DNA of 64,000 nucleotides, taken from assembly GCA_965116475.1 (NCBI GenBank), contig OZ220691.1, positions 512,001-576,000 on the forward strand, given 5' to 3'. This document shows, in pieces, positions 18,218 to 38,283 of this stretch (position 1 is the first letter of the stretch; the number at the start of each line of letters is the position of its first letter). The stretch is from Gemmatimonadota bacterium. Its GTDB lineage: Bacteria; Gemmatimonadota; Gemmatimonadetes; Palauibacterales; Palauibacteraceae. The position numbers and the translations under genes are program-made. The notes beneath the pieces are model-generated. The model saw nothing but the letters and a program-made list of their open reading frames with translations. It did no database searches and was not told the DNA's origin.

Positions 18218-19281
18218 GCCCGCCTCGACGTTCCCGCGGGAACGCGGCGCGGGAGTCCGCGGACTACGATCTCGTCGTGGTGGGGGCCGGGTTCGCGGGG
18301 CTCGCCTGCGCGCGGCGGGCGGCGGAGCGCGGGCTCTCCGTGCTCGTCCTGGAGCGGCAGTCCGAGCCGGGGGAGCGCATCCACACGACCGGGATCCTCG
18401 TCAAGGAAGCGTGGGAGGAGTGGGCCGCCCCGGCGTCGCTCGTGCGCCGAATCCAGCGCGTCCGGGTCTACGATCCGGGCCACCGTTTCGTCGAACTCGA
18501 GCGGGACTCCTATTTCTTCATGGCGACGGACACGGCGGGGCTTCTCCGCCACCTCGCCGACGAGACGCGCCGCGCGGGGGCCGAGATCCGGTTCGGCGCT
18601 CCCTTCGAGGGCGTGGCTTCCGGCCCGACCTGCCGTTTTCTGGTCGGGGCCGATGGGGCGCGCTCCAGGGTGGCCGAGAGTTTCGGGCTGGACCGCAACC
18701 GCCGGCTCCTCAAGGGTGTGGAGTGGGAGTACGAGCCCCGCGGCGGCGACGGAGACTGCCTGCACTGCTTCATCGATCCCGAGTGCGCGCCGGGCTACAT
18801 CGGGTGGGTCGTGCCGGGCGTCGGGGCCACGCAGGTGGGGCTGGCGCTCCACCGCGATCGGCGCGCGGACCTGCGCCGCTTCAGCGAGAAGCTCGACGGC
18901 CTGTTCGGGTTGTCCGGGAGACGGGTGCTGGAGAAGCGCGGCGGCGTCATCCCGATCGGCGGCCTGCTGCATAACTTTTATGCGGATCGGGTTCTGCTCG
19001 TCGGAGACGCGGCCGGCATGGTGTCGCCGCTCACCGCCGGCGGCATTCACCAGGCCTACCGCTTCGGCAAGCTCGCCGCCGACGCGATCGCGGATCACCT
19101 GGACGGCGGCCTCCATCCGGGCCCGATCCTCCGCCGCGCGTATCCGAACCACGCCCTGAAACGCGCCGCGCGCTGGGGGTTCGACCACCTCCCGGTGGCG
19201 CGCGCGCTGCAGGCCGGACTCCTGAGCTGGAACGTGTTCAGGCGGCTGGCCGAGACCGTATTCTTCCACCGTTCCCGGTAG
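18214..19281 (+). CDS. FAD-dependent oxidoreductase (geranylgeranyl reductase-like)
   Basis: YDLVVVGAGFAG, LVGADGARS, LLVGDAAG.VSPLTAGGI. The frame opens upstream of the Rossmann motif only at CTG 18214, which overlaps the rhodanese TGA; start uncertain. Confidence 0.82.
   Translation: MSPPRRSRGNAARESADYDLVVVGAGFAGLACARRAAERGLSVLVLERQSEPGERIHTTGILVKEAWEEWAAPASLVRRIQRVRVYDPGHRFVELERDSYFFMATDTAGLLRHLADETRRAGAEIRFGAPFEGVASGPTCRFLVGADGARSRVAESFGLDRNRRLLKGVEWEYEPRGGDGDCLHCFIDPECAPGYIGWVVPGVGATQVGLALHRDRRADLRRFSEKLDGLFGLSGRRVLEKRGGVIPIGGLLHNFYADRVLLVGDAAGMVSPLTAGGIHQAYRFGKLAADAIADHLDGGLHPGPILRRAYPNHALKRAARWGFDHLPVARALQAGLLSWNVFRRLAETVFFHRSR
18229..18244. repeat. 16-bp palindrome copy 1 (CGTTCCCGCGGGAACG)
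   Basis: Exact match. Confidence 0.95.
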
Positions 19282-19320
19282 GCTTCCGACACGCCCGACA
19301 GGATGGAGCCGCGCATGACA

Positions 19321-19336
19321 CGTTCCCGCGGGAACG
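19321..19336. repeat. 16-bp palindrome copy 2
   Basis: Exact match, intergenic. Confidence 0.95.
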
Positions 19337-19343
19337 TCCGACG

Positions 19344-19817
19344 ATGAGAAAGCTGTTTCTGAAGACGGCGTTGTTCTCCCTCGTGGTTCCCGGGACCGTC
19401 TCCGTCGTTCTCCCGCTGCTCATTGTTCGCGGGCGCCCGGCCGCCAGCGGCGTGACGTTTGGCCTGGCCCTCCTCCTGCTCGGATTCGGGGCCGCGATTT
19501 TTCTGCGCTGTGCATGGGATTTCGTCGTAGCCGGCAGCGGGACGCCGGCGCCGATCGATCGAACGAAGCGGCTCGTGATCCGGGGACTCTACCGCTACTC
19601 GCGAAACCCCATGTACCTGGGCGTGCTGAGCGTCATCGCGGGGTGGGCCGTCCTCTTCGGAGCCGGAATCCTCGCGGCGTACGCGGCCGCCTGGTTCGTC
19701 ATCTTCTCTCTCTTCGTGCGGTTCCACGAGGAGCCGTACCTCGCGCGCGAGTTCGGCGACGAATACGTGGCGTACAGGAAACGCGTCGGCCGCTGGCTCC
19801 CGCGGCGTTCCCGCTGA
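19344..19817 (+). CDS. Isoprenylcysteine carboxylmethyltransferase/PEMT family protein
   Basis: GTPAP....LVIRGLYRYSRNPMYLG...EEPYL...FG.EY..Y...V.RW. Confidence 0.9.
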   Translation: MRKLFLKTALFSLVVPGTVSVVLPLLIVRGRPAASGVTFGLALLLLGFGAAIFLRCAWDFVVAGSGTPAPIDRTKRLVIRGLYRYSRNPMYLGVLSVIAGWAVLFGAGILAAYAAAWFVIFSLFVRFHEEPYLAREFGDEYVAYRKRVGRWLPRRSR

Positions 19818-19824
19818 GCTGTGA

Positions 19825-19840
19825 CGTTCCCGCGGGAACG
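19825..19840. repeat. 16-bp palindrome copy 3
   Basis: Exact match 7 bp after the PEMT stop. Confidence 0.95.
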
Positions 19841-19944
19841 CCTGTCAATGAGATGGGGGGTGAGATGGGGTGGCGGGGACAACGGAGGGGCGAAGGACAG
19901 CGGGGGCTTCGCAAGGAGCCGCCGGGAACCGGGAGGTGATTCTG

Positions 19945-20598
19945 ATGGACGACACCGGCATGCGGCTCACCGCGAACGACAGGTTCAAGCGCGCCAGTAC
20001 GAACTTCACACGGATCGGTTTGCTGGTCGCGGTCTTTCTTCACCTGGGGCTCTTCGTCCTCGTGCGGCCCTTCGAGGCCGCGGACATGGGGTCCGTCACG
20101 ACCGAGATCGAGTCGATCCGACTCCCGCCGGAGGTGAGGATACCGCCCCCGCCGGAAGCGATCGCGCGTCCCGCGAGGCCGAGGGTCTCCGCCGTCGAGA
20201 TTTCGCCGGACATCACGATCGCGCCCACGACCCCGGACCGGGTCCCGAGGGGTCTGCCCCCGCGCCCCCGGGCCCCCGACCCCTCCGAGCGTCCGATCCT
20301 CATCCCCTACGACACGCCCCCGGTGCTGCTGAACCCGGGGGAGGTACTGCAGGTGCTGGAGCGGGAATACCCGCGGGCGCTGATGGAGGCCGGGATCGAA
20401 GGGCGCGTCGAACTGTGGATCTACCTGTCGGAGGAGGGCCGGGTCGAGAGGTCCGAGATCAAGACATCCTCCGGCAACCCGCTGCTCGACGAGGCGGCGG
20501 GCAGGGTGATCCCGGCGATGCGGTTCAGTCCGGCGAAGAACCGCGACCGGATCACCGCGGTCTGGGTCTCGCAGTGGGTGACGTTCCGGGTGAACTAG
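19945..20598 (+). CDS. tonB: Energy transducer TonB
   Basis: N-terminal TM, Pro-rich linker, C-terminal YPRAL..AGIEG.V...SSG..LLDEAA...RF.PA; GGAGGT RBS. Confidence 0.85.
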   Translation: MDDTGMRLTANDRFKRASTNFTRIGLLVAVFLHLGLFVLVRPFEAADMGSVTTEIESIRLPPEVRIPPPPEAIARPARPRVSAVEISPDITIAPTTPDRVPRGLPPRPRAPDPSERPILIPYDTPPVLLNPGEVLQVLEREYPRALMEAGIEGRVELWIYLSEEGRVERSEIKTSSGNPLLDEAAGRVIPAMRFSPAKNRDRITAVWVSQWVTFRVN

Positions 20599-20613
20599 AA
20601 TAAGATTCGGCCC

Positions 20614-22206
20614 ATGTCGACCCACTGGGCCATCGATCTCGGTACGTCCAACACCACCATCTGCGAAGACCGGTCCGGCCGGCCGCACATCGTGAACCTG
20701 CCGGACCTCGCCAAGCTGGAGCCCGTCACGCAGACCCCGGTCATGCCGTCGTGCGTGTGCGTCATGGACCGGGACGGCGAGGACGTCCTCATCGGGCAGG
20801 CCGCCGTCACCTACAACTGGGACGGGCAGGCCACGGGGTTCGCGCGCGGCTTCAAGCGCTACCTCGGCACGGAGAGCGGCCGGGCCCTGGCGCGCGCCGG
20901 CGGGAGAGCGTTCACCGCCCAGGATGTGGCGGCGCTCTTCCTGCGGGAGGTCATCGGCGCCCTCGAGGCGCGCTTCGGGGAAGAAGTCACCGACATCACG
21001 ATCGCCACGCCGAGCGGCTTCTACGAGACGTACCGCGCCGAGCTGCAGGCGATCATCCGGCGCCTGAAGCGCCGCGGCTGGTGGGCGCGCGTGTGGGCGC
21101 GGCTGCGGCGGAAGCCGGCCGGGATCGTGTTCCGGACGCTCGACGAGCCCGTCGCGGCCGCGCTCGGCTACGGCGTGGATGTCGGGCGCCCCACCACCCT
21201 CGTCGCCTTCGACTTCGGCGGCGGATCCATGGAGGCCGCCGTCGTGAGGACCCACGGCGCGCAGACCGTGGAGAGCGGGCGCGCGGAGGTGCTGGCCAAG
21301 CAGGCGGTGGACCTCGGCGGGGACGACGTCGACGGCTGGATTCTGGAGCGGTTCGTCCCCACGGCGCTGCACGACTGGCCCGAATGGGAGGTCGCGCTCC
21401 GCTGGGAGGCCGAGCGCGTGAAGCTCCTCGCGAGCGCCGGGAACGAGGGGGACTTCACCTTCCGCAACGAATCGTACGGGAAGCTGGACTATCCCGTCCT
21501 GAACGACATTCTCGCCGCGAACGGCCTCTACGTGCGGATCCGGGAACTGCTCGACGCGCTGCTCACGGAGCTGCGGACCCGGCACGGGGTCCTCGCCGAC
21601 GGCATCGACGACGTGATCCTCGAGGGCGGGTCGACGCTGCTGCCCGAGGTGCGGAACGTCGTGGGCGACGTGCTCGGCCGGGAGAAGGTGCGGGAATGGC
21701 TCCCCTTCGCGGCCGTGGCGCGCGGCGCGTGCATCTTCGCCGGCGGCGCGCACGTCGAAGACTTCATCTACCACGACTACGCGCTGCGCGTCCTGCCCGA
21801 AGACGATGCCGACGCCGAGTACGAGCTGCTCATCCCCGGCGGCACGTGCTTCCCCACGGTCGACAACTTCGCGACGCGCTACTACGCCCCCGGCCGCGAT
21901 GGCCAGCGGCACATCAACCTCTTCATCTGCGAGGTCGGACGGGTGGCCGGACGCCCCATCGACTGGAGCGAGCGCAGCAACGGCTCCAGCTACTTCGTGC
22001 CGCGGAGCGCCGGCGAGCGGGCGTTCTGCCTGTGCCTCAACGAGGCGGACCCCGCCCTGCCGCTGGATCCCCCCGGCAGGGGCACGGCGCCCCGGCTGCG
22101 CGTCACGTACTCGGTGGACGAAAACCGCTGGCTGTGTGTAACCGTACATGACCTGCACCGGAAGACGGACCTGAAAGTCAAGCACCCAGTGGTGAGATTG
22201 CGGTGA
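20614..22206 (+). CDS. Hsp70 family protein (non-DnaK, short substrate-binding region)
   Basis: AIDLGTSNT, LDEPVAAALGY, FDFGGGS, AERVK, LEGGSTLLP, AVARGA. Confidence 0.88.
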   Translation: MSTHWAIDLGTSNTTICEDRSGRPHIVNLPDLAKLEPVTQTPVMPSCVCVMDRDGEDVLIGQAAVTYNWDGQATGFARGFKRYLGTESGRALARAGGRAFTAQDVAALFLREVIGALEARFGEEVTDITIATPSGFYETYRAELQAIIRRLKRRGWWARVWARLRRKPAGIVFRTLDEPVAAALGYGVDVGRPTTLVAFDFGGGSMEAAVVRTHGAQTVESGRAEVLAKQAVDLGGDDVDGWILERFVPTALHDWPEWEVALRWEAERVKLLASAGNEGDFTFRNESYGKLDYPVLNDILAANGLYVRIRELLDALLTELRTRHGVLADGIDDVILEGGSTLLPEVRNVVGDVLGREKVREWLPFAAVARGACIFAGGAHVEDFIYHDYALRVLPEDDADAEYELLIPGGTCFPTVDNFATRYYAPGRDGQRHINLFICEVGRVAGRPIDWSERSNGSSYFVPRSAGERAFCLCLNEADPALPLDPPGRGTAPRLRVTYSVDENRWLCVTVHDLHRKTDLKVKHPVVRLR

Positions 22207-22240
22207 GATTGCGGTGAGATTGCGGTGAGATTGCGATGAG
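22191..22240 (+). repeat. 4 x 11-bp tandem repeat GGTGAGATTGC at the Hsp70/HEAT junction
   Basis: Read directly. Confidence 0.92.
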
Positions 22241-23525
22241 CTTCCTCCAGTCGCTGTTCGGACCGAGCCGGAAGGAGATCTGGCGCCAGCTCTCCCGCGA
22301 GCTGGACGGGCAGTTCCATGACGGGGGCCTTTTCGGCCACTCCGCCGTCCAGGCCCGCAGCGGCGACTGGACCCTCACGCTCGACACCTTCACATCCGGC
22401 GACGGCAAGACGAACCAGACGTTCACGAGACTCCGCGCCCCCTACTTCAATCCCGAGGGGTTCCGGTTCGACATCTACCGGGCGGGCGTCTTCAGCGGGT
22501 TCGGGAAGGCGCTGGGCATGCAGGACGTCGAGGTCGGCCAGCCGCGCTTCGACCGGGACTTCGTGATCAAGGGCAACGCGCCGCGGCGCCTGCGGCGGCT
22601 CTTCGGCAACGCTGCCGTCCGTCGGCTCATCCATGCCCAGCCCAAGATCCAGCTTTCGGTGAAGGGCCGCGACGGGTGGTTCGGCCGTTACCCGGACGGG
22701 ATGGACGAACTCCACTTCCAGGCGCATGGGGCGATCAAGGACCTCGTGCGGCTGCGGAACCTGTTCGACCTGTTCACGGAGGTCCTGTGGCAGGTCTGTC
22801 ACGGGGGGAGGACGGACGGGGACGACGTCCGGTTCCACGTCCGTCGCCTGAGCGCGCCCGGGGGCCGAATCACCAACAAGTACGTCCTCTGGGAAGGAGA
22901 CAGCCCGCGCCGCCACGCCGCCGCCGCACTCGGACGGCTCGGGGACCCCGCGGCGATCCCGGCCCTGGCCGATGTTCTCTGGGACGACGACGCCGTGCTC
23001 CGGCTGCGGGCGGTCGAAGCGCTCGCCGAGATTCGGCACCGCGACGCGATCGGGCCGCTCGTCCCGCTGCTGGGCGACGCGCGGAAGGCCGCCGGCCTGC
23101 GATTCCGCGACGGCGTCGCCGAGGCGTTGCGGCAACTGGGCAAGGCGGAGCTGGTCGTCACCGTGGGCGCGGCGCTCGGCGGCGACTTCGACGGTCTCAA
23201 GGCCTACGACGGCAGCTACCGGGCGGAGATCATCGCGGCGCTCGGCCACGCGCTCGAGGGATCCTCCGGCGCACACGCGGCGCACGCCCTCGCCGAGATC
23301 CACGCCGTGGAAGCGCTCCCCCGCCTGCGCGAGGTGCGGAGGAGCATCGGGTCACGGGACGCCACGGGTGAGGCGGTTTCCGCCGCGATCGGCAAGCTCG
23401 AAGCCCGGGCCGCCCTTCCACGCGCCGCAGCAGCAGCCGACGTCGAAGTCGACACCCTCCCCCGGTCCGCCCAGGCACCGGGCCCCGACACCGGCACCCT
23501 CCCCCGCAGCTCCCAGACCCCCTAG
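22236..23525 (+). CDS. HEAT-repeat domain protein with N-terminal DUF3137-like domain
   Basis: C-terminal AAAALGRLGDPAAIPAL...RLRAVEALAEI....AIGPLV repeats; N-terminal QDVEVG.PRFD..FVIKG. Confidence 0.7.
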   Translation: MSFLQSLFGPSRKEIWRQLSRELDGQFHDGGLFGHSAVQARSGDWTLTLDTFTSGDGKTNQTFTRLRAPYFNPEGFRFDIYRAGVFSGFGKALGMQDVEVGQPRFDRDFVIKGNAPRRLRRLFGNAAVRRLIHAQPKIQLSVKGRDGWFGRYPDGMDELHFQAHGAIKDLVRLRNLFDLFTEVLWQVCHGGRTDGDDVRFHVRRLSAPGGRITNKYVLWEGDSPRRHAAAALGRLGDPAAIPALADVLWDDDAVLRLRAVEALAEIRHRDAIGPLVPLLGDARKAAGLRFRDGVAEALRQLGKAELVVTVGAALGGDFDGLKAYDGSYRAEIIAALGHALEGSSGAHAAHALAEIHAVEALPRLREVRRSIGSRDATGEAVSAAIGKLEARAALPRAAAAADVEVDTLPRSAQAPGPDTGTLPRSSQTP

Positions 23526-23529
23526 ACGG

Positions 23530-23545
23530 CGTTCCCGCGGGAACG
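23530..23545. repeat. 16-bp palindrome copy 4
   Basis: Exact match between convergent genes. Confidence 0.95.
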
Positions 23546-23579
23546 TGTGGGCGTTGATCTCGCGCCCTTGACCCTGACG

Positions 23580-25562
23580 TTACAACGCTCCCTGGCGTTT
23601 CCGCTCGAAGATCGACACCCTCATGGTCAGGATCTTCTGTCCGACGTAGCCGGCGACCGGCGTACCGGACATGCGCGCGTCGATGTCGCGGCGGTACACC
23701 GCCGCCTTACCCTCTAGCGTCGCGCACTCCTTGAGCACGATCCGCGTCCCGTAGGTGACGAAGCTGTCTCTCGGGAGCACCCCTCCCTCCCCCACGATCC
23801 ACTCCGGCCTGCCGAGGCCATCGATCGGCCCTTCGGACCGGGGCACGCCTATCTGAGAGAACATCTGCTCGACCTTCACCGTGAGGGGGAGGTCCAGGGG
23901 CTCGCTCCATCGGTTGAGAAAGTCCACGCTCACATCGAAGCTGCAGGAGGCGGCGTCGAAGGTGCTCCTGTTGACGAGAACCGCGACCGAGTCGGTAACG
24001 TTGCGTCCGAGATCCGCGTTCCACTCGGCCCGGGTCCTGGCCGTCCCGGAGACCTCCACGGGTGCGGTATACAGCTGCGCGACCCCGGTCCGGTTGTCGA
24101 CCCATACGGGGTGGAATCGACCGTCTGCCGCAACCATCATTCCGACGTAGTCTCCCACCTCCTCGTAGGTGCGGTGCGCTCCGCCCGTGATGATCGCGAT
24201 CCAGCTGCTGCCGTCCCTGGGTCCGGGGACGGCGCCCAGGCCCGCATACCCCTCCCGTTCTCCCTCCCCTCGCGCGTAGGTGTGTGCGGCTTCGCTCACC
24301 GCAACGCTGGGCAGCACGCTTTCGCCCCCGTCCAGAGAGGCCGTGAATCGCTGGCGGAACTCCTGATTGAAGGGGTCTTCACGACGGTCGAGCCAGGTGA
24401 TCCCAACGACCCCGTCGCGGTTGACCGCGATGTCGGGCATGAACGCGTTCGGGCCTGCGGAATCGAGGGGGATGCGGGGGTCGTCGACCGGAAGGGGGCT
24501 GGCCCATTCCTCACCGTCGTCCGACCAGCTCAACATGATCTGACAGCGTCCGTACGTGTGGTCCGCGAACGCCAGGTAGGCCCGCCCGTGGAATGGACCG
24601 TCGGAATGATCGACCGCGATCTCCGGAGGACCGCCATAGGGCGTACACGGCGTGGTCTTTGCGACGTGGTGCGGTTGGTGGATGGCCCTCCCACCTTCGG
24701 TGACCGTCACGACGGAGGCGAAGTTCTTCGTGGCCGTGTCTCGGGGGGCTTCCCACCAGGGGGGGTCCCACCAGGGCGTCGGCGAAGGAGCGGGGGGTGT
24801 GGGCTGAAACGGGGGGCGGACATCGACGGGAACGAGGACCCACCCATCCGGGTGCACGGCCGGTGCACCGACCTGGCCCTGATACCAGTCCTTCGGGATC
24901 AACATGTCGACGGGACCCGCGTAGCTCCGGCCGGAGTCGGCCGAGACCACGAGCGACACATGCCGCCGCGGAAGCTCGCCCTCCTCCTCCTCGACCCGCA
25001 CGCCCACGGCGTAGACGTGCCCGTGATACGGCCCGCCCGTCCAGTCGACGACGAGATCCGCGTTGTCCACGAACGGTCCGAGCACGGGTTCGCTCCACGT
25101 GCGGCCACCGTCCGTCGAGCGGAAGAAGTGAGTGATGACGTGTGACTCGTACGCGATCCTCGGGTCCCCGCGGGCCGGTAGCGACGCGAAGTAGACCATG
25201 CCTCCCGGCCCGAAGGCGCAGGCGGGGTCCCATGTCGTGCCCCACCGCGAGATCGTGTCGTTCAACGCGATGCCCCAGGTCGCCCCCGCGTCATGGGACA
25301 CATAGATGCCCGTCGACAGCCGGCTTCGGGTGGGGTCGACGATCATCGAGCACACCGCCATGCGGGTCGAGTCCGAGGGATCGGCATGGGCGAAGTACTC
25401 CGAGTGCGCCGCAGCCGCATGATCGCCGCTGACGAGCACATTCCGCCCCACCTGGATCAAGGAGCGCCCATGGCGGGGCTGTTCAGGCGGCGCGCACGCC
25501 GGGGTCGTGAGGATGAATACGGAGACGAGGGCGAACACGGCCTCCAGGCGGGGTGCCGTCAC
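23580..25562 (-). CDS. Sialidase-like (Asp-box/BNR) beta-propeller lipoprotein
   Basis: Asp-boxes SHDAGATW, STDGGRTW, SADSGRSY, SDDGEEW, SLDGGES; GDYVGM; GTG start overlapping the upstream stop. Confidence 0.78.
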   Translation of the reverse strand: MTAPRLEAVFALVSVFILTTPACAPPEQPRHGRSLIQVGRNVLVSGDHAAAAHSEYFAHADPSDSTRMAVCSMIVDPTRSRLSTGIYVSHDAGATWGIALNDTISRWGTTWDPACAFGPGGMVYFASLPARGDPRIAYESHVITHFFRSTDGGRTWSEPVLGPFVDNADLVVDWTGGPYHGHVYAVGVRVEEEEGELPRRHVSLVVSADSGRSYAGPVDMLIPKDWYQGQVGAPAVHPDGWVLVPVDVRPPFQPTPPAPSPTPWWDPPWWEAPRDTATKNFASVVTVTEGGRAIHQPHHVAKTTPCTPYGGPPEIAVDHSDGPFHGRAYLAFADHTYGRCQIMLSWSDDGEEWASPLPVDDPRIPLDSAGPNAFMPDIAVNRDGVVGITWLDRREDPFNQEFRQRFTASLDGGESVLPSVAVSEAAHTYARGEGEREGYAGLGAVPGPRDGSSWIAIITGGAHRTYEEVGDYVGMMVAADGRFHPVWVDNRTGVAQLYTAPVEVSGTARTRAEWNADLGRNVTDSVAVLVNRSTFDAASCSFDVSVDFLNRWSEPLDLPLTVKVEQMFSQIGVPRSEGPIDGLGRPEWIVGEGGVLPRDSFVTYGTRIVLKECATLEGKAAVYRRDIDARMSGTPVAGYVGQKILTMRVSIFERKRQGAL

Positions 25563-27403: not shown

Positions 27404-27424
27404 AATGATAAATAACTCTCATTA
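27403..27424. promoter_or_regulatory. Fur-box-like site at the start of the PD40 gene
   Basis: TAATGATAAATAACTCTCATTA (TAATGA...TCATTA dyad). Confidence 0.6.
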
Positions 27425-27546
27425 CGGTAAGGCGTCAATCGGGATGTCGTGCCCGGACGATTCCTTGCCTTGATTGGAGGAGTTCGACCACGAGCAGTAC
27501 CAGGAGGAGGTCGAGCGCTGGAGGAACCGTGCGCGTGACAGGGGCC

Positions 27547-27566
27547 GATAAGGCGTTATCATTATC
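27547..27566. promoter_or_regulatory. Fur-box-like site upstream of the fur-family gene
   Basis: Reverse complement GATAATGATAACGCCTTATC versus the classical GATAATGATAATCATTATC. Confidence 0.7.
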
Positions 27567-27614
27567 GTCCAACGGCGGTCCAACCGTGGTCCAACGGTGC
27601 GGAGGCGACCTTCG

Positions 27615-27983: not shown

Positions 27984-28091
27984 CGGACGCCTGACCCGGC
28001 CGTGCGCGTGACGAGCCGCTGACCCGGCCGCTTCCCGCGGCCCCGGGGCGGCCTGATCGGCGATCGTCGGCCCCGACCCTTGCCCCTTATC

Positions 28092-30223: not shown

Positions 30224-30366
30224 CGCGACCCGCGGGCGCCGCCCATCCGGCACGGCGTTCGCGCACCCCCGTTTCCGGGCCTCCTCCGGGCCTCCGTACG
30301 CAAATCCGATCGGACCCGCTATTCTGAAGCGCGAATGCGCTGAGGGTCTCGACCGGTGCGGGGGAC

Positions 30367-30906: not shown

Positions 30907-30974
30907 GCGGGCGGGGCGCGTGAGCGGGTGGGGCGCGTGAGCGGGTGGGGCGCGTGAGCGGGCGGGGCGCGTGA
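30903..30974 (+). repeat. 4 x 17-bp tandem repeat GTGAGCGGGYGGGGCGC at the dctQ/dctM junction
   Basis: Read directly. Confidence 0.92.
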
Positions 30975-32278
30975 TGGACGGGACCGGCATCGCCCTCGCG
31001 GGCTTTCTCGCCCTCTTCGTCCTGCTCTTCATCCGGGTGCCGGTGGGGCTGGCGATGCTCGTCGTCGGCGTGGGCGGCATCGCGGCGGTCCGTCCGGGCG
31101 CCGTCACGGCCGTGCTGGCGGGCGAGATCTTCGCCGTCGCCTCCCGCTATCCCCTCACCATCCTGCCGCTGTTCATGCTGATGGGGAACCTGGCCGTGGC
31201 CTCCGGGATGAGCCAGGACCTGTACCGCGCGGCCCACAGTTGGCTCGGCCGCTTCCGGGGCAGCCTCGCCTCCGCGTCGATCGTCGCCTGCGCCGGATTC
31301 TCGGCCCTTTCCGGCTCGTCGCTGGCCGCCGCGCTCACCATGGGCCGCGTGTCGCTGCCCGAGATGCGGCGGTTCAGGTACGACGACTCGCTGGCGACCG
31401 GGGCCATCGCCGCCGGCGGCACGCTCGGCTTCCTCATCCCGCCCTCCGCGGGACTCGTCATCTACGGGATCGTCACCGAAGAGAGCATCGGCCGACTCTT
31501 CATGGCCGGCGTCGTGCCCGGGATCGTGCTCACGCTGCTCTTCGTGCTCACCGTCTGGATCGTCGTCCGGCGCGACCCCGACAAAGCGCCCCACGCCCGG
31601 ACGCCCGTTCCGTGGCGGGAGCGCCTGCGCGCCACCGCGAGCGCGGCGTGGATCCTGGGCATCGTCATCGTGACCATCGGCGGCATCTACGCCGGCATCT
31701 TCTCCGCCATCGAGGCGGCCGGCGTCGGCGCGTGCCTCACGCTCGTCGCGGCCTGCGCGCGGCGGGCGCTGAACCGGCGGACCGTTGTCGAGATCGTCAA
31801 CGGCACGCTGAAGGCGAGCGGCACCGCCTTCCTGATCCTGTTCGGCGCGTTCGTGTTCAAGGTCTTCCTCGGACTTACCGGGATCGCGTTCGTCGCGGCG
31901 GAGTGGGTCGGCGAGCAGGGGTTCTCCGGCGCCCAGGTCGTGGTGCTCGTGCTGCTCGTGTTCATCGTGCTCGGGACGTTCCTGGACGGGTTCGCGATGC
32001 TCGTGCTGACCGTGCCCCTCGTGCAGCCGATCCTCGAGTCACTGGGCGTCGACATGATCTGGTTCGGCGTGATGATCGTGGTCACGCTCGAGATGGGACT
32101 GATCTCGCCCCCCGTGGGGCTGAACATCTTCGTGGTCAAGGGCGTCGCCCCGGACGTGCCGGTGCGCACGATGTTCCGCGGCATCCTGCCGTTCTGGCTC
32201 GCGATGCTGGCGGCGCTGACCCTGATCGCGCTCTTCCCCCGCATCGCCACCTTCCTCCCGAACGCGATGTATGGATGA
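30971..32278 (+). CDS. dctM: TRAP transporter large permease
   Basis: LPLFMLMG, SGSSLA, GGTLGFLIPPS, SIGRLF.AG..PG, MGLISPPVGLN. Confidence 0.93.
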   Translation: MMDGTGIALAGFLALFVLLFIRVPVGLAMLVVGVGGIAAVRPGAVTAVLAGEIFAVASRYPLTILPLFMLMGNLAVASGMSQDLYRAAHSWLGRFRGSLASASIVACAGFSALSGSSLAAALTMGRVSLPEMRRFRYDDSLATGAIAAGGTLGFLIPPSAGLVIYGIVTEESIGRLFMAGVVPGIVLTLLFVLTVWIVVRRDPDKAPHARTPVPWRERLRATASAAWILGIVIVTIGGIYAGIFSAIEAAGVGACLTLVAACARRALNRRTVVEIVNGTLKASGTAFLILFGAFVFKVFLGLTGIAFVAAEWVGEQGFSGAQVVVLVLLVFIVLGTFLDGFAMLVLTVPLVQPILESLGVDMIWFGVMIVVTLEMGLISPPVGLNIFVVKGVAPDVPVRTMFRGILPFWLAMLAALTLIALFPRIATFLPNAMYG

Positions 32279-32309
32279 GGGTGTACGGATGAGGGTGTAC
32301 GGATGAGCG
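32268..32309 (+). repeat. 3 x 14-bp tandem repeat TGTAYGGATGAGGG at the dctM/NCS2 junction
   Basis: Read directly. Confidence 0.9.
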
Positions 32310-34078
32310 CGGCCGGGGGTCTCCGATACGAGGTGGAGGACCGGGTTCCGGGGCCGGTCGCGCTGGGTCTCGGCCTGCAGCTCGCCGCGATGGGGGTTAA
32401 CGGGGCCGTGCTGATACCCACGATCGTGTTCCAGGCGGGGGGTGCCGAGGAACTCGTGTTGTGGGCGGTGTTCGCCTCGGTCCTGGCGTGCAGCGTCGCC
32501 ACCATCCTCCAGGGCTGGCGCGTGGGGCGGATCGGGGCGGGGTACGCGCTGCCGCACGTCAGCTCGGCGATCTTCATCGGCGTGTGCGCGGAGGCGCTGA
32601 TCCAGGGAGGAGCGGGGCTGCTCGCCACCCTGGTCGTCATCTCCGCGCTCGCCCAGGCGGCCTTTTCCGCGCGGCTCTCGCTCCTGCACCGGGTGCTCAC
32701 GCCCGTCGTCACGGGGACGGTGGTCATGCTCCTCCCCGTCACCGTGATGCCGATCCTCTTCGGCATGCTCAACGAGTTGCCGCCGGGCGCCCCCGTGCCG
32801 GCCGCGCCGCTGAGCGCCGCCATGACACTCGTCGCCACCCTCGGGATCGCGCTCCGGACGGGAGGGACCCTGCGCCTGTGGGCTCCGGCCATCGGCATCC
32901 TCGCGGGCTCCCTGACCGGGGCCGCCTTCGGCATCTACGACACCGGCCTCGTGGCCGACGCCCGGTGGATCGGCTTCCCGGTCGGCGGGCTGCCCGCGCT
33001 GGACGTCGGCTTCGGCCCGGCGTTCTGGGGATTGCTGCCCGCGTTCCTGTTCGTGGCGCTCGTCGGCACGACCAAGTCGGTCGCCGTCGCGGTCGCCGCC
33101 CAGCGCTTGTCGTGGCGCCGGCCGCGGGCGGTCGATTTTCGCGCCGTGCAGCGTGCCGTGGCCGCGAAGGGCGCCGGGAACCTGCTCGCGGGCCTCGCGG
33201 GAACGATGCCGAACACGCTCAACGTGAACGCCGTGGCCGCCATCGAAGTCACGGGCGTCGCGGCGCGCCGGGTCGGCGTCGCGGCCGGACTCGTCTTCTT
33301 CGTCCTCGCCTTCGTCCCCAAGGCGCTCGCCCTCATTCTCGCCATTCCCGGAGCCGTCGTGGCCGCCTCCATGGCCGTGATCATGGCGACGCTGTTCACG
33401 GTCGGGATGCGCGAAGTCGCGCGGAGCATCGGCTCGAACCCCCGCAACGGCCTCATCGCGGGCGTCTCGTTCTGGACGGGCGTCGCCTGCGAGTTCGACA
33501 TGGTCTTTCCCGCGTTCTTCGCCGAGTTCGCGGGCGGGCTGTTGAGCAGCGGGCTCACGGCGGGGGGCCTGGTGGCGCTGCTGCTCACGGGGCTCACGGC
33601 GCGGCGGAAGCGCCGGCTCAGGGGTACACTCGACATGGCCGAACTGCCGCGGATCCGGGAGTTCATCCAGGCGTTCTCGGCCCGGCACGGGCTGGCGCCC
33701 GTCCTGGACCGGCTCGAAGCCGCGAGCGAGGAGGCGCTGCTGACGCTTCTGGAGTCGCGCGAGGACCCGGAGGGGGCGGAGGGGGCGGAGGGGGCGGAAG
33801 AAGCACCGGCCCCGGGGAGACGTGAGCTTCTTCTGACGGCGAGCGAGGAGGACGACGAGGCCGTGCTGGAATTCAGGGTCGGCGCCGCGGGCAGCGAGGA
33901 ACTCAACCTCCAGGACCGCCTGGCGTGGCTCGAGGCGGACACCCGGGCGGCCGACGTGGAGCAGGAGATCTCGCTCCGGCTGCTCCGGCACCTCGCCTCC
34001 TCCGTGCGGCACCGGCAGTTTCACGACGTGGACATACTCACCCTGCGCGTCTCCGCCGTCCCCGAGCGGGAGTCCTGA
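32303..34078 (+). CDS. NCS2 (xanthine/uracil permease) family protein with C-terminal degenerate RsbW/HATPase-like domain
   Basis: LRYEVEDR, LGLQ, TILQ..RVGRIGAG, TPVVTGTV, TGVAARRVG, PK......IP..V; ~160-aa soluble tail. Confidence 0.78.
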   Translation: MSAAGGLRYEVEDRVPGPVALGLGLQLAAMGVNGAVLIPTIVFQAGGAEELVLWAVFASVLACSVATILQGWRVGRIGAGYALPHVSSAIFIGVCAEALIQGGAGLLATLVVISALAQAAFSARLSLLHRVLTPVVTGTVVMLLPVTVMPILFGMLNELPPGAPVPAAPLSAAMTLVATLGIALRTGGTLRLWAPAIGILAGSLTGAAFGIYDTGLVADARWIGFPVGGLPALDVGFGPAFWGLLPAFLFVALVGTTKSVAVAVAAQRLSWRRPRAVDFRAVQRAVAAKGAGNLLAGLAGTMPNTLNVNAVAAIEVTGVAARRVGVAAGLVFFVLAFVPKALALILAIPGAVVAASMAVIMATLFTVGMREVARSIGSNPRNGLIAGVSFWTGVACEFDMVFPAFFAEFAGGLLSSGLTAGGLVALLLTGLTARRKRRLRGTLDMAELPRIREFIQAFSARHGLAPVLDRLEAASEEALLTLLESREDPEGAEGAEGAEEAPAPGRRELLLTASEEDDEAVLEFRVGAAGSEELNLQDRLAWLEADTRAADVEQEISLRLLRHLASSVRHRQFHDVDILTLRVSAVPERES

Positions 34079-35094
34079 TGGCCAACGCGAGGCGGCTGCT
34101 CGCTGTCGGCCTGCTCGTTGTCGGCCTGCTCGTCGCGGGCGGATGCGGGGATGCCTCCGACGCAAGCCGTACCCGGGAGTTGTCGCTGGCGCACTTCCTG
34201 CCGGCGGATCACGTCCTCACCGGGGACATGTTCACGCCGCTGGCGGAGAAGCTCTCGGAGCTTTCGAGCGGCAGACTCACCGTGAGACAGTTCCCCGCCG
34301 GGGCCCTGAACTCGTCGGCGCCGGCGCAGTACTCGATCCTGCGGAGCGGCGTGGCCGACATCGCCCTCGCGATTCCCGCCTACACCGCCGACATCTTTCC
34401 GAAGACCGACCTCATCGGCTTTCCCGGCATCTGCAAGACCGCGGTGGAGTGCACCGAGGCCATGCGGCACGCCCGGTCCGTGCTGGAGGCGGAGTACGAC
34501 GCGAAGGTCCTGGGACTGTGGTCCAACGACGCCCCGGTGCTGATCACGCGCGAGACACCCGTGCGGACGCTCGAGGACATGCGCGGGCTCAAGATCCGCG
34601 TGTCGACGCGGAGCCTCATCCCCTTCATCGAGGCGCTGGGCGCCAGCGCGGTCATGCAGCCCGGCACCGTGGTCCATCAGAGCCTGACCACCGGCGTCAT
34701 CGACGGCGTCGCCATCTCCCCGTCGGGAATCGTGGCCTTCCAGCTGCACGAACCCGCCGCCTACCTGACCACCTGGCTCCCCGCGTCCGGACTTCCGTTC
34801 GTCCTGCTGATGAACCGGGGGGTCTACGAGGCCCTCTCGCCCGAGGAACAGGGCTGGATCGACGAAGCCGCCGACGCCTCGCTGTCGATGGCGGGGGCCA
34901 CCGCCTACGCGCGCGCCGGCGCCGACGGCCTGCGGATGGCGGAGGAAGCCGGCGTCGAGATCATCGACCTTCCCGAGAGCGAGATCCGCCGCTTCGAACA
35001 GGCCATCGCCTCCGTCCGCGAGGCCGGCCTCGCCCGCCAGGTAGGCGACATGACCGCCGCCGACGTGATCCGCCTCTTCCGCCCGGCCCCGTAA
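34078..35094 (+). CDS. dctP: TRAP substrate-binding lipoprotein
   Basis: Lipobox VAGGC; SSGRLTV..FPAGAL; VRTLEDMRGLKIR; SLTTGVIDG; LLMN..YEAL. Confidence 0.9.
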   Translation: MANARRLLAVGLLVVGLLVAGGCGDASDASRTRELSLAHFLPADHVLTGDMFTPLAEKLSELSSGRLTVRQFPAGALNSSAPAQYSILRSGVADIALAIPAYTADIFPKTDLIGFPGICKTAVECTEAMRHARSVLEAEYDAKVLGLWSNDAPVLITRETPVRTLEDMRGLKIRVSTRSLIPFIEALGASAVMQPGTVVHQSLTTGVIDGVAISPSGIVAFQLHEPAAYLTTWLPASGLPFVLLMNRGVYEALSPEEQGWIDEAADASLSMAGATAYARAGADGLRMAEEAGVEIIDLPESEIRRFEQAIASVREAGLARQVGDMTAADVIRLFRPAP

Positions 35095-35134
35095 GCGACC
35101 GCCGGACGGGCCGAGTGCCAATGGCCGTGCCTTC

Positions 35135-35694
35135 ATGACGCTGGGACAACTTCTTGCGTTCAACGTCGCCTTGTTGTTCGCGATCGCGAGCCCGGGACCC
35201 GCCCTGCTGGTGGCCGTCCAGACCGCGCTTCGCTCCGGACGTGCGGCCGGAATCGCCATCGGGGCCGGTCTCGGTGCGATGGCCGCGACGTGGACGCTGC
35301 TCGCCGCGGGCGGGCTGGGACTGGTCTTCGAGAGGCTGCCGTGGCTGTACGGGTCCATGCGGGCCGCCGGGGCGCTCTATCTGTTCTATCTCGCGTACCG
35401 GATGTGGACGAGCGCCGCGAAACCCCCGCCAGCCCGCTCCGCCCCCCAACGGCAGGCCTTCCTCCGGGGGATGATCATCAACCTCTCGAATCCCAAGTCG
35501 GTCCTCTTCGCGGCCTCGTGATCGTCGCCAACCACTTGCTCGTCGAGATCGTGTTCTACACCACACTCGTCTTCTGCATGAGCACACAGGCGGTCGCCGC
35601 CCGGTACATGCGGGCGAGACTCTACATCGATCGCGCCGCAGCCTCGATCCTCGGCGCCCTCGGGCTCTGGATCGCGATTTCGGCCCTCGCGTAG
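35135..35694 (+). pseudogene. LysE family translocator with an internal frameshifting deletion
   Basis: SPGPALL...NLSNPKSVLFAAS* in one frame; the C-terminal VIVANHLLVE...IDRAAASILGALG continues in another frame from ~35518. Confidence 0.8.
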
Positions 35695-35724
35695 CGCCGA
35701 TTGCCACCCTCACGCCGCCATCGG

Positions 35725-37116
35725 TCACGCCGCCATCGGCCTGGTCTCGTACTGTCCCCAGAGGACCCAGAGCGCCCAGTCGATGTCCAGCGGGTCGCCC
35801 ATCCAGAGGCTGGTCGCCGTCCAGGGGTCGATCCCCTCCTGACGGTGCCAGTTCCCGAGTCCCGCATCGGCGGTTCGGGGCGCCCTGACGTCCTCGCGTA
35901 CCGGGGGCACCGCCGGTACCACGCGCCCGGCCGGATCGCGGAAGCGCGCCGCGCCCGCCTCCCCCATCTCGACGCGCCAGCCGCCCTCGTGCACGGCCCT
36001 GTGATGGAACCGGCACAGGAGGATCAGGTTGTCGAGCTTCGTCTCGCCCCCCTCGGACCAGGGGATGGCGTGATGGGCCTGCGTGTAACGCGAGCCGCAG
36101 CCCGGGAAACGGCAGCCCCCGTCCCGGACGTCGAGCGCCTTGCGCAGCCGCCACCCGACGGTGCGCTGGCGGCGGCCCACGTCCAGCACCGAGCCGTCCC
36201 GCCCGCGCTTCACCTCCACGGTCTCCGCGTCGCAGGCCAGGCGCCGGGACGTTCCCGCGGGAACGTGTGAGCCGTCCTCCGTGGCCAGGATCTCGGGGCC
36301 GCCGGCCACGGTGTGGACCACCAGTTGAGCCCTCGCCTCGGCGCGCTCCTCGAGCCACGCTCCGAGCGCGTCGTGGCGCCGCTCCGTCTGACTCGGCCGG
36401 AGCCCGGGCGTCGGCGTCGGCTGGGGCCCGGCCATCGGCCCGGCCGGCGGCGGGTCCGGCTCCCCCGTGGCGGCATCGGCCTCGCGCTCCATGGCGGCGT
36501 CGGCCTCACGCTCCATGGCGCACTCCTGCCGGTGGAGTTCGTCCACGGTGACGTCCAGCGTCTCCACGAGCAGGGCGCCCACCTCGGGCATGAGCAGGCC
36601 ACGGACCTCGTACATCCCGTCGGCCGTCATCCGGACCGTCAGGTGACGGCGGGCCGCCATCTCCGACGTCCCGTCCGGCGCCGCCATGGCGGCCTCCGCG
36701 CTCTTCGCCGCCCGCACGAAACGCTCCACCTGGCTCGCCGTGTGGTGGAGGGCGAACTCGACCAGCCGCGCCTCGTTCTCGGCCGTGGCCATGCGCGTGA
36801 GCGCCCGGACCTTGGACCAGGAGAGCCGCCCCTTCTCCATCTCGGCGGAGGTCAGCGGCAGGTCGGCGAGGCGGCGGGCCGCCCGCAGCCGCTCGCGGGC
36901 CGCGCCGAGGGAGATGCCGGCGCGCCAGTTCAGCCAGTGGGCGCAGGAGCGCCACCCGCTCCAGCGTTCCTCCTCATCGTAGCGGCGCAACAGCGTCAGG
37001 AGCCGATACTGGGCCGCGTCGATGTGGGCGCAGAGTTCGGCGATCTCGTCGCCCACGGGGTCGCCGGCCAAGGCAGCAGGGTGCGAGTCGGCGGAAGGGT
37101 CAGGCGTCTCATGCAT
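35725..37116 (-). CDS. DUF222 (REP13E12-like) + HNH endonuclease
   Basis: IAELCAHIDAA, SCAHWLNWR.G...ARE..R.AR.L..LP, G.LSWSKVRA.TR, RRLACD, LDVGRR.R, RDGGCRFPGC...AHH...W..GGET.LDNL.LLC.FHH..VH. Confidence 0.92.
   Translation of the reverse strand: MHETPDPSADSHPAALAGDPVGDEIAELCAHIDAAQYRLLTLLRRYDEEERWSGWRSCAHWLNWRAGISLGAARERLRAARRLADLPLTSAEMEKGRLSWSKVRALTRMATAENEARLVEFALHHTASQVERFVRAAKSAEAAMAAPDGTSEMAARRHLTVRMTADGMYEVRGLLMPEVGALLVETLDVTVDELHRQECAMEREADAAMEREADAATGEPDPPPAGPMAGPQPTPTPGLRPSQTERRHDALGAWLEERAEARAQLVVHTVAGGPEILATEDGSHVPAGTSRRLACDAETVEVKRGRDGSVLDVGRRQRTVGWRLRKALDVRDGGCRFPGCGSRYTQAHHAIPWSEGGETKLDNLILLCRFHHRAVHEGGWRVEMGEAGAARFRDPAGRVVPAVPPVREDVRAPRTADAGLGNWHRQEGIDPWTATSLWMGDPLDIDWALWVLWGQYETRPMAA
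36250..36265. repeat. 16-bp palindrome copy 5, inside the HNH gene (codes H-V-P-A-G-T)
   Basis: Exact match; minus-strand codons CAC GTT CCC GCG GGA ACG TCC CGG CGC. Confidence 0.95.
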
Positions 37117-37189
37117 GGCGTTCTCATCCGAATCTCAGGGTTCAAAGGGGTACGCACTCATACCCCGATCTTCGGTAAATGTTCGGGTT

Positions 37190-37237
37190 CCGTCTCAACC
37201 AGGTCTCAACGTCGGTCTCAGCGTCGGTCTCAGCGTC
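37190..37237. repeat. Four degenerate 11-12-bp units (GGTCTCARCGTC) upstream of the HNH gene
   Basis: ccgtctcaacc aggtctcaacgt cggtctcagcgt cggtctcagcgt. Confidence 0.75.
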
Positions 37238-37242
37238 CGGGA

Positions 37243-37258
37243 CGTTCCCGCGGGAACG
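37243..37258. repeat. 16-bp palindrome copy 6
   Basis: Exact match ~127 bp upstream of the HNH start. Confidence 0.95.
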
Positions 37259-37298
37259 CCGGAGGCCAGTCAACCGGTGCTGCCGCCCCGCGGGCGTC

Positions 37299-37335
37299 GC
37301 CGAATCCAGTTGCCGAATCCAGTTGCCGAATCCAG
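37299..37335. repeat. ~3 x 13-bp tandem GCCGAATCCAGTT
   Basis: Read directly. Confidence 0.85.
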
Positions 37336-37400
37336 GCGCCGCGCTCGAACGTAGAGTCCTCATCGACCTCACCTTTCCGGAATCCGAGGACGTGAGCGCC

Positions 37401-37628
37401 ATGGGCAAGTGGTCGCGCAGGTGGTCGCCGAAGCACTGGCCGAGACGGTATCGCATCGCGCTGAGCTGCTGCGGGGCCGGGGTGGTGGTCGGTGGAGTGC
37501 TGGCCTGGTTCGGGCAGGGCTGGGGGCGTTACGTGGCGCTCGCGGGCGTCATCCTTTGCGTCCTCAGCCTCATGGCCCTCGAAAGCCTGTTGGAAGACGG
37601 CCCCGACAGCCTGTCCGGCGGCGACTGA
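37401..37628 (+). CDS. Small two-TM hypothetical protein
   Basis: GAGGA RBS, ATG, two hydrophobic helices. Confidence 0.5.
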   Translation: MGKWSRRWSPKHWPRRYRIALSCCGAGVVVGGVLAWFGQGWGRYVALAGVILCVLSLMALESLLEDGPDSLSGGD

Positions 37629-37629
37629 C

Positions 37630-38229
37630 TCAGTCGGCGCGCCAGCCGACCTCCCTTGCCCATTCGTCGCGGGCGCTGGCGTACGCATCGTAGTCGGCCG
37701 GCGGGCGCTCTTCCTCGGAGGCCGCGCGGCTCCGCGCTTCCTTCATCTGCTCGGCCAGCGGCGGGAGTCCGACGGCCTGGCGGCGCTCCTCCAGCCTCTG
37801 CGGGTCCTCCACGGCGCCCGGCGAGAGATTCCCCTCGGCGTCCCAATCGAACTGCGTCCCGTAGCGTTGCGGCCGGCCCTCGAAGAACCGGATCCGGTCC
37901 TCGAGCAGCGCCGCGTGCCGCGGAGACGCCCTCCCTTCGCGCGCGGCATCCTCGAGGAGGGGGAGCGCGCGCCGGAGCAGGTCGGGCTGCGCGATCGCGT
38001 GCTGCAGGATGATCCACGCCGCGTCCGCCCCCTCGGGACCGACGAGGTCCGTTCCCGGCCACCCGACCGACTCGATGATCCGGCGAAGACGCCGCGCATT
38101 CCGCTCGTGAACGCGGGCCATCCGGGGCTCGTAGCCGCCGAAGAGTTCGCCCGAGTCCACGAGTTCGGCGCGCACCTCCTGGTCCCGACGCACCATCTCC
38201 AGCAGTTCGTCCCTGAGCGTGTCGTTCAT
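37630..38229 (-). CDS. DUF6624-like protein
   Basis: M...DQ.VR, GWPG..LVG..GA.AAW.I.QH, A.LEDR....GRPQRYGTQF. Confidence 0.8.
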   Translation of the reverse strand: MNDTLRDELLEMVRRDQEVRAELVDSGELFGGYEPRMARVHERNARRLRRIIESVGWPGTDLVGPEGADAAWIILQHAIAQPDLLRRALPLLEDAAREGRASPRHAALLEDRIRFFEGRPQRYGTQFDWDAEGNLSPGAVEDPQRLEERRQAVGLPPLAEQMKEARSRAASEEERPPADYDAYASARDEWAREVGWRAD

Positions 38230-38267
38230 CCGTAGCGTCCGGGGGATCCGCGCTATCCCCGTCGAAA

Positions 38268-38283
38268 CGTTCCCGCGGGAACG
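38268..38283. repeat. 16-bp palindrome copy 7
   Basis: Exact match, intergenic. Confidence 0.95.

Follow-up and report, generated by a model that had tools for sequence, protein, structure and literature searches.

A dispersed 16-bp palindrome of a sponge-associated Gemmatimonadota genome, a candidate parS-like site of the DUF222-HNH nucleases that carry it

The stretch of DNA analyzed here, referred to as the window, comprises 64,000 bp (bases 512001-576000) of the genome of a sponge-associated Gemmatimonadota bacterium, which is assembled in one contig of 3.62 Mb with 69.4% G+C and is labelled G000 in the following. The window contains seven copies of a perfect 16-bp palindrome, CGTTCCCGCGGGAACG, called M throughout this text. 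One of these copies lies inside the coding sequence (CDS) of a DUF222-HNH nuclease gene, whose nearest named relatives belong to Candidatus Palauibacter from sponge metagenomes. The dispersed palindrome and the in-gene palindrome are linked: they co-vary between genomes. With moderate confidence, we regard M as a parS-like duplex site that is cognate to the DUF222-HNH protein, whose ParB-like head would read it as a dimer and whose nuclease action would underlie insertions, inversions, and gene fragments.

A first-pass annotation, made from the sequence of the window alone, had listed seven M positions, all of which are exact; further copies with up to two mismatches do not occur in the window. 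Shuffled versions of the window (n=100) contained 0.18 matches on average, and seven were reached in none of them. Six copies had been placed at gene boundaries, and this holds as well: five lie between genes in a crude gene model based on G+C content at third codon positions (GC3), and the sixth precedes the ATG of the nuclease gene by 126 bp, next to the roughly 127 bp first given. The seventh encodes HVPAGT followed by SRRLACDA, in agreement with the initial reading of HVPAGT before RRLACD. The copies, which carry no strand, are:

18229..18244: extragenic M, 11 bp 3' of the stop of a rhodanese-like open reading frame (ORF); present in the relative G003, not in G002
19321..19336: extragenic M between a FAD-oxidoreductase-like ORF and a PEMT-like ORF
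19825..19840: extragenic M, 7 bp 3' of the stop of the PEMT-like ORF; G016 has a copy too
23530..23545: extragenic M between convergent ORFs, 4 bp beyond one of the stops
36250..36265: M in the DUF222-HNH CDS, coding for (H)VPAGT in the linker from DUF222 to HNH
37243..37258: M upstream of the HNH gene, within a repeated element; it may act as an operator of this gene
38268..38283: extragenic M, 38 bp upstream of the start of a DUF6624 ORF (37630-38229, minus strand); its other side is gene-free for 602 bp

Genome-wide, M occurs in 74 exact copies, accompanied by 12 with one mismatch and 10 with two. Control palindromes with shuffled half-sites (n=200) averaged 0.01 exact, 0.46 one-mismatch, and 9.0 two-mismatch matches. 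M is by far the commonest 14-mer of the genome, with 150 occurrences on both strands compared to 23 for the runner-up. Eight of the 74 copies lie inside seven DUF222-HNH paralogues and one fragment, six in copies of their upstream regions, and 60 elsewhere, the majority of the latter 3-40 bp beyond stop codons according to the crude GC3-based model. In the same model, 21 of the 74 have convergent neighbours, 20 have co-directional and 10 divergent ones, and 23 are called within ORFs. Seven of these 23 are in HNH genes (the copy of the fragment being called intergenic), and several are artefacts of ORF starts set too far upstream. The copies are spread across the entire chromosome, sometimes in clusters; a confinement to the oriC/parAB region, which the first-pass annotation had named as pointing to a ParB site, is not seen. 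It had also reported shared bases next to M. These are real, but they amount only to a weak preference at about three flank positions, with T at the outward +1 position in 92 of 120 flanks, C at +2 in 78 of 120, and nothing conserved past +3.

Ten of the 15 copies that the crude model places in non-HNH ORFs are in the VPAGT frame; in one of them, M makes up the five codons that precede a stop. Another short inverted repeat (GGCCAGT..CCCAACTGGC-like) adjoins M or separates two M about 60 bp apart at genome positions 1407585, 1597512-1597585, 2760488-2760551, and 2892966. A stretch related to this repeat precedes the upstream M of HNH genes, and contigs of public runs contain the same M-spacer-M units.

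The nuclease gene of the window, P0001 (463 aa), is one of seven intact paralogues (67-100% identity) detected in the genome by tblastn together with one short fragment, and M occupies the same codons in all eight genes or fragments. Pfam assigns residues 29-332 to DUF222 (PF02720; E 4.8e-23, 82.4 bits, cut-off 24.4) and residues 335-376 to HNH (PF01844; E 3.1e-08, 34.1 bits, cut-off 21.4). The Pfam scan of P0001 returned only DUF222, HNH, and HNH_2, and no ParB/Srx CTP-binding domain (PF02195). Across 43 sequences, the HNH domain shows no variation in its cysteines, histidines, and asparagine, which comprise the catalytic and zinc residues. The gene and the features in and around it are:

35725..37116, minus strand: DUF222-HNH gene P0001
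36673..37035, minus strand: modelled ParB/Noc/KorB-type helix-turn-helix domain (codons 28-148)
35911..36162, minus strand: HNH nuclease domain (codons 319-402) with the invariant Cys, His, and Asn positions
35702..37310 (approximate), minus strand: repeated HNH element of about 1.6 kb, common to the paralogues and not bounded exactly by M
37202..37237, no strand: 12-bp tandem repeat in three copies between the upstream M and the ATG, conserved in other paralogues
37299-37335: 13-bp tandem repeat in 2.8 copies, beyond the upstream M
36468-36520: 24-bp tandem repeat in the HNH gene, which doubles EREADAAM in the variable part of the protein
35710-35739: 15-bp tandem repeat across the stop codon of the HNH gene, with a copy number that varies among paralogues

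Upstream of the paralogues, an exact M is found at a distance of 126-157 bp in five of seven cases and a one-mismatch copy in one. One paralogue has a truncated upstream M exactly where its homology to the other paralogues starts, and the most diverged paralogue has an extra M 63 bp beyond its stop. Distant paralogues contain HVSAET twice, encoded by a palindrome both times, on either side of a segment of 22-50 residues that differs between paralogues. Short orphan pieces of HNH genes (60-140 bp), with the palindrome at their centre, are found isolated among other genes at genome positions 2021414-2021551 and also at locus L245.

The in-gene site was compared across 80 loci from Gemmatimonadota, Acidobacteriota, Rokubacteria/Methylomirabilota, Gammaproteobacteria, and one Acidimicrobiia. 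Its 16-mer is a perfect palindrome in 42 loci, keeps seven of eight pairs in 28, and fewer in 10; in the alignment, 92.4% of the cells pair. Palindrome-preserving codon covariation, for which the first-pass annotation had suggested looking, is evident from 41 cells with two-sided changes, compared to 12.4 ± 2.6 in shuffles (none of 500 reached 41) and at most 14 in slid-partner controls. Two of the paired changes are synonymous, namely GTC..GAG versus GTT..GAA and TCC GCG versus TCA GCT, and a third, S..E versus P..G, alters two amino acids together. The VSAET palindrome that the first-pass annotation had expected in homologues is present in their sequences, and the change from S/E to P/G, which had been taken as compensatory at the DNA level, is among the paired changes of the cross-phylum alignment. 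A quick IQ-TREE tree, the careful search for which is unfinished, requires at least three origins of M, together with at least 10 changes for the variant with A:T at positions 7/10, at least three for CGTCTCCGCGGAGACG, and at least seven for CGTTTCCGCGGAAACG. To judge from this covariation, the dyad symmetry of the in-gene site is selected.

The most variable pair is formed by positions 7/10 (C:G 41, A:T 23), two synonymous third positions that distinguish TCC GCG from TCA GCT. Both positions fall in the four-base loop of the predicted hairpin. As the strongest covariation is found at a loop pair, the symmetry appears to be that of a duplex read by a dimer rather than that of a stem. The single-strand hairpin itself is weak: about -6 kcal/mol where the hairpin stands alone, with a stem of 5-7 bp and z values from -0.05 to -1.9 in the five copies that were folded, none of which is clearly distinct from its shuffles. 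The peptide encoded in the linker is modelled at a predicted local distance difference test (pLDDT) score below 50 (AlphaFold2, residues 260-303), and this low-confidence model fits a constraint on the DNA and not on the protein.

M was found in 16 of the 24 other genomes of the genus, with 7-67 copies each. The 16 genomes compared from the neighbouring family all lack it. Close homologues of the nuclease contain VPAGT, encoded by M, and distant ones (42-60% identity) contain VSAET, encoded by CGTCTCCGCGGAGACG or CGTTTCCGCGGAAACG, which are perfect palindromes too. The distribution of these variants follows the resident genes. CGTCTCCGCGGAGACG occurs only in G001, G004, G005, and G018 (8, 16, 3, and 2 copies, respectively), which are exactly the four genomes whose genes carry it, and is absent from 37 other genomes. 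CGTTTCCGCGGAAACG is limited to five genomes; in G010, it lies inside one gene and upstream of that gene. Like M, the variant copies in G004 and G010 are extragenic and positioned just beyond stop codons, at times packed beside M copies.

Five comparison genomes outside the genus extend this picture, one of which (G044) is the same record as G006 and therefore not independent. In G041 (Longimicrobiales), whose gene carries CGTTTCAGCTGAAACG, nine of 13 matches to a degenerate pattern are CGTTTCAGCTGAAACG, and six of these nine lie outside HNH genes. A second genome with a CGTTTCAGCTGAAACG-type gene, G042, reveals the variant of its gene in about 23 of 27 matches, and all 13 that were examined are located outside HNH genes. 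In G043, whose gene carries M by a separate origin, five M are found; three of the four examined lie outside HNH genes, and one is part of a 60-bp gene fragment. In all three genomes, the extragenic palindrome equals the in-gene variant. The proposal that the dominant dispersed palindrome should match that of the resident gene, VSAET-type or VPAGT-type, is thus borne out in each lineage tested.

A candidate reader of the site is offered by the protein itself. We built a structure model of the nuclease from a 43-sequence alignment (mean pLDDT 71). When the Foldseek list was aligned with VIA-align, the top seven entries for residues 28-143 were ParB-family DNA-binding domains: Noc 7ng0 (Z 9.9, root-mean-square deviation 2.5, 101 residues), Spo0J-parS 4umk_B (Z 9.5), Noc bound to its binding site NBS, 6y93_A (Z 9.2, 103 of 105 residues), and four ParB entries (Z 8.1-9.1). 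A scan of 48,161 chains that was independent of Foldseek had as its best match the ParB DNA-binding domain in complex with parS (6s6h_B, Z 8.1, 104 residues) and also listed Spo0J (Z 7.0) and KorB (Z 6.2 and 5.7). Foldseek alone returned no match at E <= 0.001. Attempts at the sequence level always aligned the same ParB stretch, the region from the helix-turn-helix to SVRETE. The N-terminal part of DUF222 is thus modelled as a candidate DNA-binding domain of the ParB/Noc/KorB type.

Two independent observations are in line with this fold: the likeness of the site to parS, described below, and a residue of the domain that tracks the site. Residue 127, within the motif GT[A/T]AHVER, is alanine in 43 of 43 proteins whose gene has C:G at pair 7/10. 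Among the 24 proteins with A:T at this pair, it is threonine in 19, valine in two (L129, L075), alanine in two (L081, L078), and a gap in one. Separate switches are seen in the Rokubacteria clade, in a Lysobacterales row, and in the sister clade of Palauibacter, and a single Gemmatimonadota clade contains two. At pair 5/12, no residue recurring with the M-type change is common to the three M origins. In ParB and Noc, according to PMC7383237, a few interface residues set the base pair that is read, the inner position that varies here included; the inner base pair at this position is one of two that separate parS from NBS, and it is read by a residue of the helix following the helix-turn-helix.

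To follow the sites between genomes, 42 M sites of two relatives were surveyed against G000: all 18 of G011, a complete genome with no DUF222, and 24 of the 40 of G006 (the first 24 in order of coordinate, skipping the pair at its first HNH gene and not including the final 14). They are distributed as follows:

16 of 42 sites: collinear, exact M
6 of 42 sites: collinear without exact M (two one-mismatch copies, two clean indels of 41 and 44 bp containing M, two larger indels)
11 of 42 sites: flanks at different places or strands
7 of 42 sites: one flank only, five of them ending 90 bp or less from an M in G000
2 of 42 sites: no counterpart

Among the 22 collinear orthologous sites, M is exact in both genomes in 16 and one base off in two more, with flanks that are 77-95% identical; alignments inside the 500-bp flanks are mostly continuous.

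M sites are recombination junctions. A single M of G006 corresponds in G000 to M - HNH paralogue c6 - M, and in this filled/empty pair, M stands on both sides of the HNH cassette as well as inside the gene, i.e., the recognition-like site was not removed. Another single M of G006 corresponds to an M, 2.3 kb with a BlaI/BlaR1-like pair, and a one-mismatch M. Where G011 has two M separated by 498 bp, G000 has two M separated by 5 kb that comprise an S9 peptidase and a second BlaI/BlaR1-like pair, with a further M in the middle. The two paralogous BlaI/BlaR1-like pairs (Penicillinase_R and Peptidase_M56; genome 2767001-2769231 and 2827496-2829288; L228, L229) are each bounded by M and are missing at the matching place in G011 or G006. 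An inverted DapB segment has both breakpoints at M, and a 1.18-Mb rearrangement has one end directly at M (1169137) and the other at a distance of 546 bp from the nearest copy considered. Elsewhere, HNH genes are truncated such that they start directly behind the palindrome, and paralogue c4 of G000 is a related case. In the window, the HNH locus is itself rearranged relative to relatives, and an anchor-based look at filled and empty sites gave one clean case, 18229. The first-pass annotation had proposed that the nuclease recombines its site; insertion, inversion, and rearrangement junctions do lie at M, and the HNH cassette sits in one of them. Apparent contig joints at M in public runs had sides of only 20-22 letters, which derive from other M loci, and the one raw-read run, a Hi-C library, yielded no aligned reads.

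Several observations were made on the neighbouring genes. The rhodanese-like ORF next to M 18229 (17960-18217) lacks about 141 bp compared with its counterparts in G002 and G003, and the stretch missing from it sits between two near-identical short repeats just upstream of M. A LysE-type translocator ORF (35135-35521, 128 aa) covers only positions 2-119 of a 193-position profile and ends just before the HNH element; this stretch has another position relative to its neighbours in G003 and is missing in G006. In the last 16 kb of the window (48001-64000), G+C falls from about 0.70 to 0.57-0.62, and this part may be an acquired island.

The preferred reading, a parS-like site with its own nuclease, can be phrased as a sequence of steps. 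The first 120 or so residues of DUF222, as modelled, would form the ParB/Noc/KorB-type helix-turn-helix domain and would bind the 16-bp dyad as a dimer. The HNH domain would then nick or cut at or near the bound M, and the breaks would be repaired or rejoined with other M-bearing DNA. Such rejoining could spread the gene, gene halves, host cassettes, and the palindrome itself. The sites outlive the gene. Nuclease-free relatives keep fewer copies.

A more far-reaching form of this proposal, which is conceivable and which we put forward only tentatively, is a self-propagating cut-and-rejoin system in which cut M ends fit any other cut M and rejoining regenerates M. Host cassettes such as the BlaI/BlaR1-like pairs, the DapB segment, and the HNH cassette would then move between M sites as in an integron without an integrase, and the site in the linker could let paralogues swap their DNA-binding and nuclease halves. 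Near-cognate sequences might further be turned into exact M in the manner of a site drive, and if this is true, both the excess of exact over decayed copies and the birth of M in place within a host gene would follow from it.

A number of observations weigh against the nuclease-centred reading. Foremost, G008, G011, and G023 carry 34, 18, and 26 exact M, respectively, and no DUF222-HNH, as tested by protein (E <= 1e-10), by profile (E <= 0.01), and by PF02720, with nine matches in G000 and two in G006 as controls. At six of eight comparable sites of G011, M is exact in both genomes. The sites thus persist, and may be conserved, without the nuclease. An intragenic M in an amidohydrolase-like gene shows no length difference from the M-less orthologue and drifts by 1-3 bases among species; consequently, M can arise in place. 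In the acidobacterial genome G045, all nine palindromes lie inside HNH genes or fragments, and dispersal is therefore not universal. Six of the seven paralogues have no M at their downstream end, and the limits of the repeated element are not exactly at M. The breakpoints at M are individual cases rather than a controlled enrichment over non-M intergenic sites, and the compared genomes are related, so that the counts are not independent.

The protein side has counterpoints of its own. The ParB likeness is taken from a predicted model of a helical domain, and Z values of 8-10 can arise from common helical arrangements. Comparisons of DUF222 and ParB at the sequence level were not significant (E 0.014, 0.19, and 0.11; probability below 4%), and a profile search of the PDB sequences with DUF222 returned no ParB. 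Residue 127 does not map to a known specificity residue of ParB, and the parallel is one of kind only. Its rule has four exceptions among the 24 A:T proteins plus one gapped row, and the association, as read from the sequences, could be due to co-inheritance by block recombination.

The first-pass annotation had held that an equal abundance of the motif in genomes without DUF222-HNH would speak against a link between the two. This is partly the case, as the three gene-free relatives contain 18-34 copies. M copy number increases with the number of gene matches: genomes without a match have 18-34 copies, those with one match 31-34, those with two 35-55, those with three or four 59-67, and those with nine or ten 66-74. 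Relative to exact copies, one-mismatch copies amount to 0.25, 0.12, and 0.16 in three genomes with the gene, compared to 0.94, 0.29, and 0.31 in three without, the M set of G011 being clearly more decayed. Both trends fit a slow decay after gene loss; they are weak because the genomes are related and because metagenome-assembled genomes collapse repeats.

Alternatively, M could be an architectural or regulatory site of the host, a roadblock or operator at gene ends to which another factor binds, and a selfish HNH gene would merely carry or copy it. We consider this unlikely, but it alone among the alternatives keeps real weight because of the HNH-less genomes. Besides the persistence of M in these three genomes, its exact conservation at orthologous places across species and its placement, mostly 3-40 bp past stops and with 21 convergent against 10 divergent cases, would be expected of such a site. 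It accounts poorly for the in-gene palindrome of the HNH family, which is present across phyla and therefore predates dispersal, and for the extragenic variant that follows that of the gene in every lineage tested. In addition, the nuclease has in its own domain a residue that varies with the site, and only one protein with a ParB-type helix-turn-helix, the chromosomal ParB, is found per genome, even in the M-free relative G021.

The mechanism that the first-pass annotation had favoured, a system like that of repetitive extragenic palindromic sequences and their associated tyrosine transposases (REP/RAYT), would make M a single-strand hairpin that is cut and copied by the nuclease, as RAYT transposases mobilise REPs. 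Dispersed, extragenic, at times clustered palindromes tied to one multi-copy enzyme gene are reminiscent of it, and so are the presence/absence indels of 41-44 bp that contain M. A Y1 transposase (PF01797) is absent from the genome, though, while the same search was positive in 6 of 14 genomes as a control; the hairpin is as weak as described above, its best covarying pair lies in the loop, nothing is conserved past about three flanking bases, and the modelled protein fold is that of a duplex-binding, ParB-like domain. We regard this mechanism as very improbable, and an identity of M with a REP/RAYT system was rejected on account of the missing Y1 transposase and the weak hairpin.

It is just as hard to credit that M acts at the transcript level as a terminator or 3' stabilising hairpin, to which its position just past stops and between convergent genes would be suited: the six M in 18000-37900 all lack a T run and received no terminator call, the hairpin is weak, conservation is 16/16 in sequence and not in structure with covariation at the loop pair, and one copy lies inside a CDS across phyla. 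With no terminator call at these six copies, this identity was rejected as well.

Least probable of all is that M is the chromosomal parS bound by the chromosomal ParB, which was rejected since the host has its own parS pair beside parB and the M-free G021 keeps its ParB. The canonical parS of the host, TGTTTCACGTGAAACA, is located at genome position 1769086 beside parA and the only parB, which is also the only PF02195 match of the genome; a second parS at 1769155, 69 bp away, differs from it at nothing but the two outermost bases, at which it agrees with M. M has the same dyad architecture and shares 8 of 16 bases with the host parS, the A:T variant 12 of 16. Yet M is chromosome-wide, and it is absent from 8 of the 24 genomes of the genus, of which the one tested (G021) still has a chromosomal ParB. 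Of the parS-like alternative first considered, the parS-like dyad stands; the likely binder is the nuclease's own ParB-like domain, while the chromosomal ParB has its canonical parS beside parAB.

Among known systems, ParB-parS, Noc-NBS, and KorB-OB come closest. Like M, their sites are palindromes of 16 or 13 bp, parS with the same 16-bp dyad architecture, and the modelled fold matches; Noc and KorB have many sites scattered over a replicon, as has M. In contrast to the ParB family, the DUF222-HNH protein has no N-terminal CTPase domain and joins its modelled DNA-binding domain to an HNH nuclease, and its gene occurs in several copies and has a selfish appearance; furthermore, M is found in the gene's own CDS, its sites are recombination junctions, and the sequence similarity to ParB is not significant. 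REP/RAYT systems likewise combine a short extragenic palindrome at gene ends, sometimes clustered, with one resident enzyme gene, but they employ Y1/HUH enzymes, imperfect hairpins instead of a perfect duplex dyad, and hundreds of copies instead of about 60, and it is here that the enzyme gene is multi-copy and holds the site in its own CDS. Free-standing HNH homing endonuclease genes are selfish nuclease genes, too, and one copy of the present gene fills an uninterrupted recognition-like site of a relative. Unlike in classical homing, M is kept on both sides and in the gene and not destroyed, the many sites lie at unrelated loci, and there is no flanking homology.

The same Pfam architecture of DUF222 and HNH, with multi-copy genes, is known from the REP13E12/13E12 family of mycobacteria, which we compared by description only and whose host differs from the Gemmatimonadota studied here. 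According to PMC13061034, the REP13E12 loci of M. tuberculosis rank with those that undergo gene conversion most often, and they are without a defined function. The main-text portions of the DUF222-HNH/REP13E12 and related literature that were consulted (PMC10589994, PMC3592412, PMC13061034, PMC10123090, PMC4351075, PMC7383237) do not describe an in-gene palindrome, its dispersal, its covariation, or a ParB-like domain in DUF222; their supplements may hold more. New in this study are the genome-wide dispersal, the match of extragenic and in-gene variants across lineages, the cross-phylum covariation count, the co-variation of a residue with a base pair, the junction cases, and the persistence of sites without the gene.

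DUF222-HNH proteins, including those of the mycobacterial 13E12 repeats, form a large multi-copy family of no known function, and the reading of M as their cognate site, if true, gives the family a concrete and testable mechanism. The palindrome is an example of a DNA signal within a CDS that paired changes have preserved across phyla, in some cases with two amino acids altered together. If the reading is true, the variant specificities of these proteins would constitute a family of natural pairs of DNA-binding and nuclease domains that may be of use as tools, and the system would explain how uncultured sponge symbionts gain cassettes and undergo inversions and rearrangements at defined sites.

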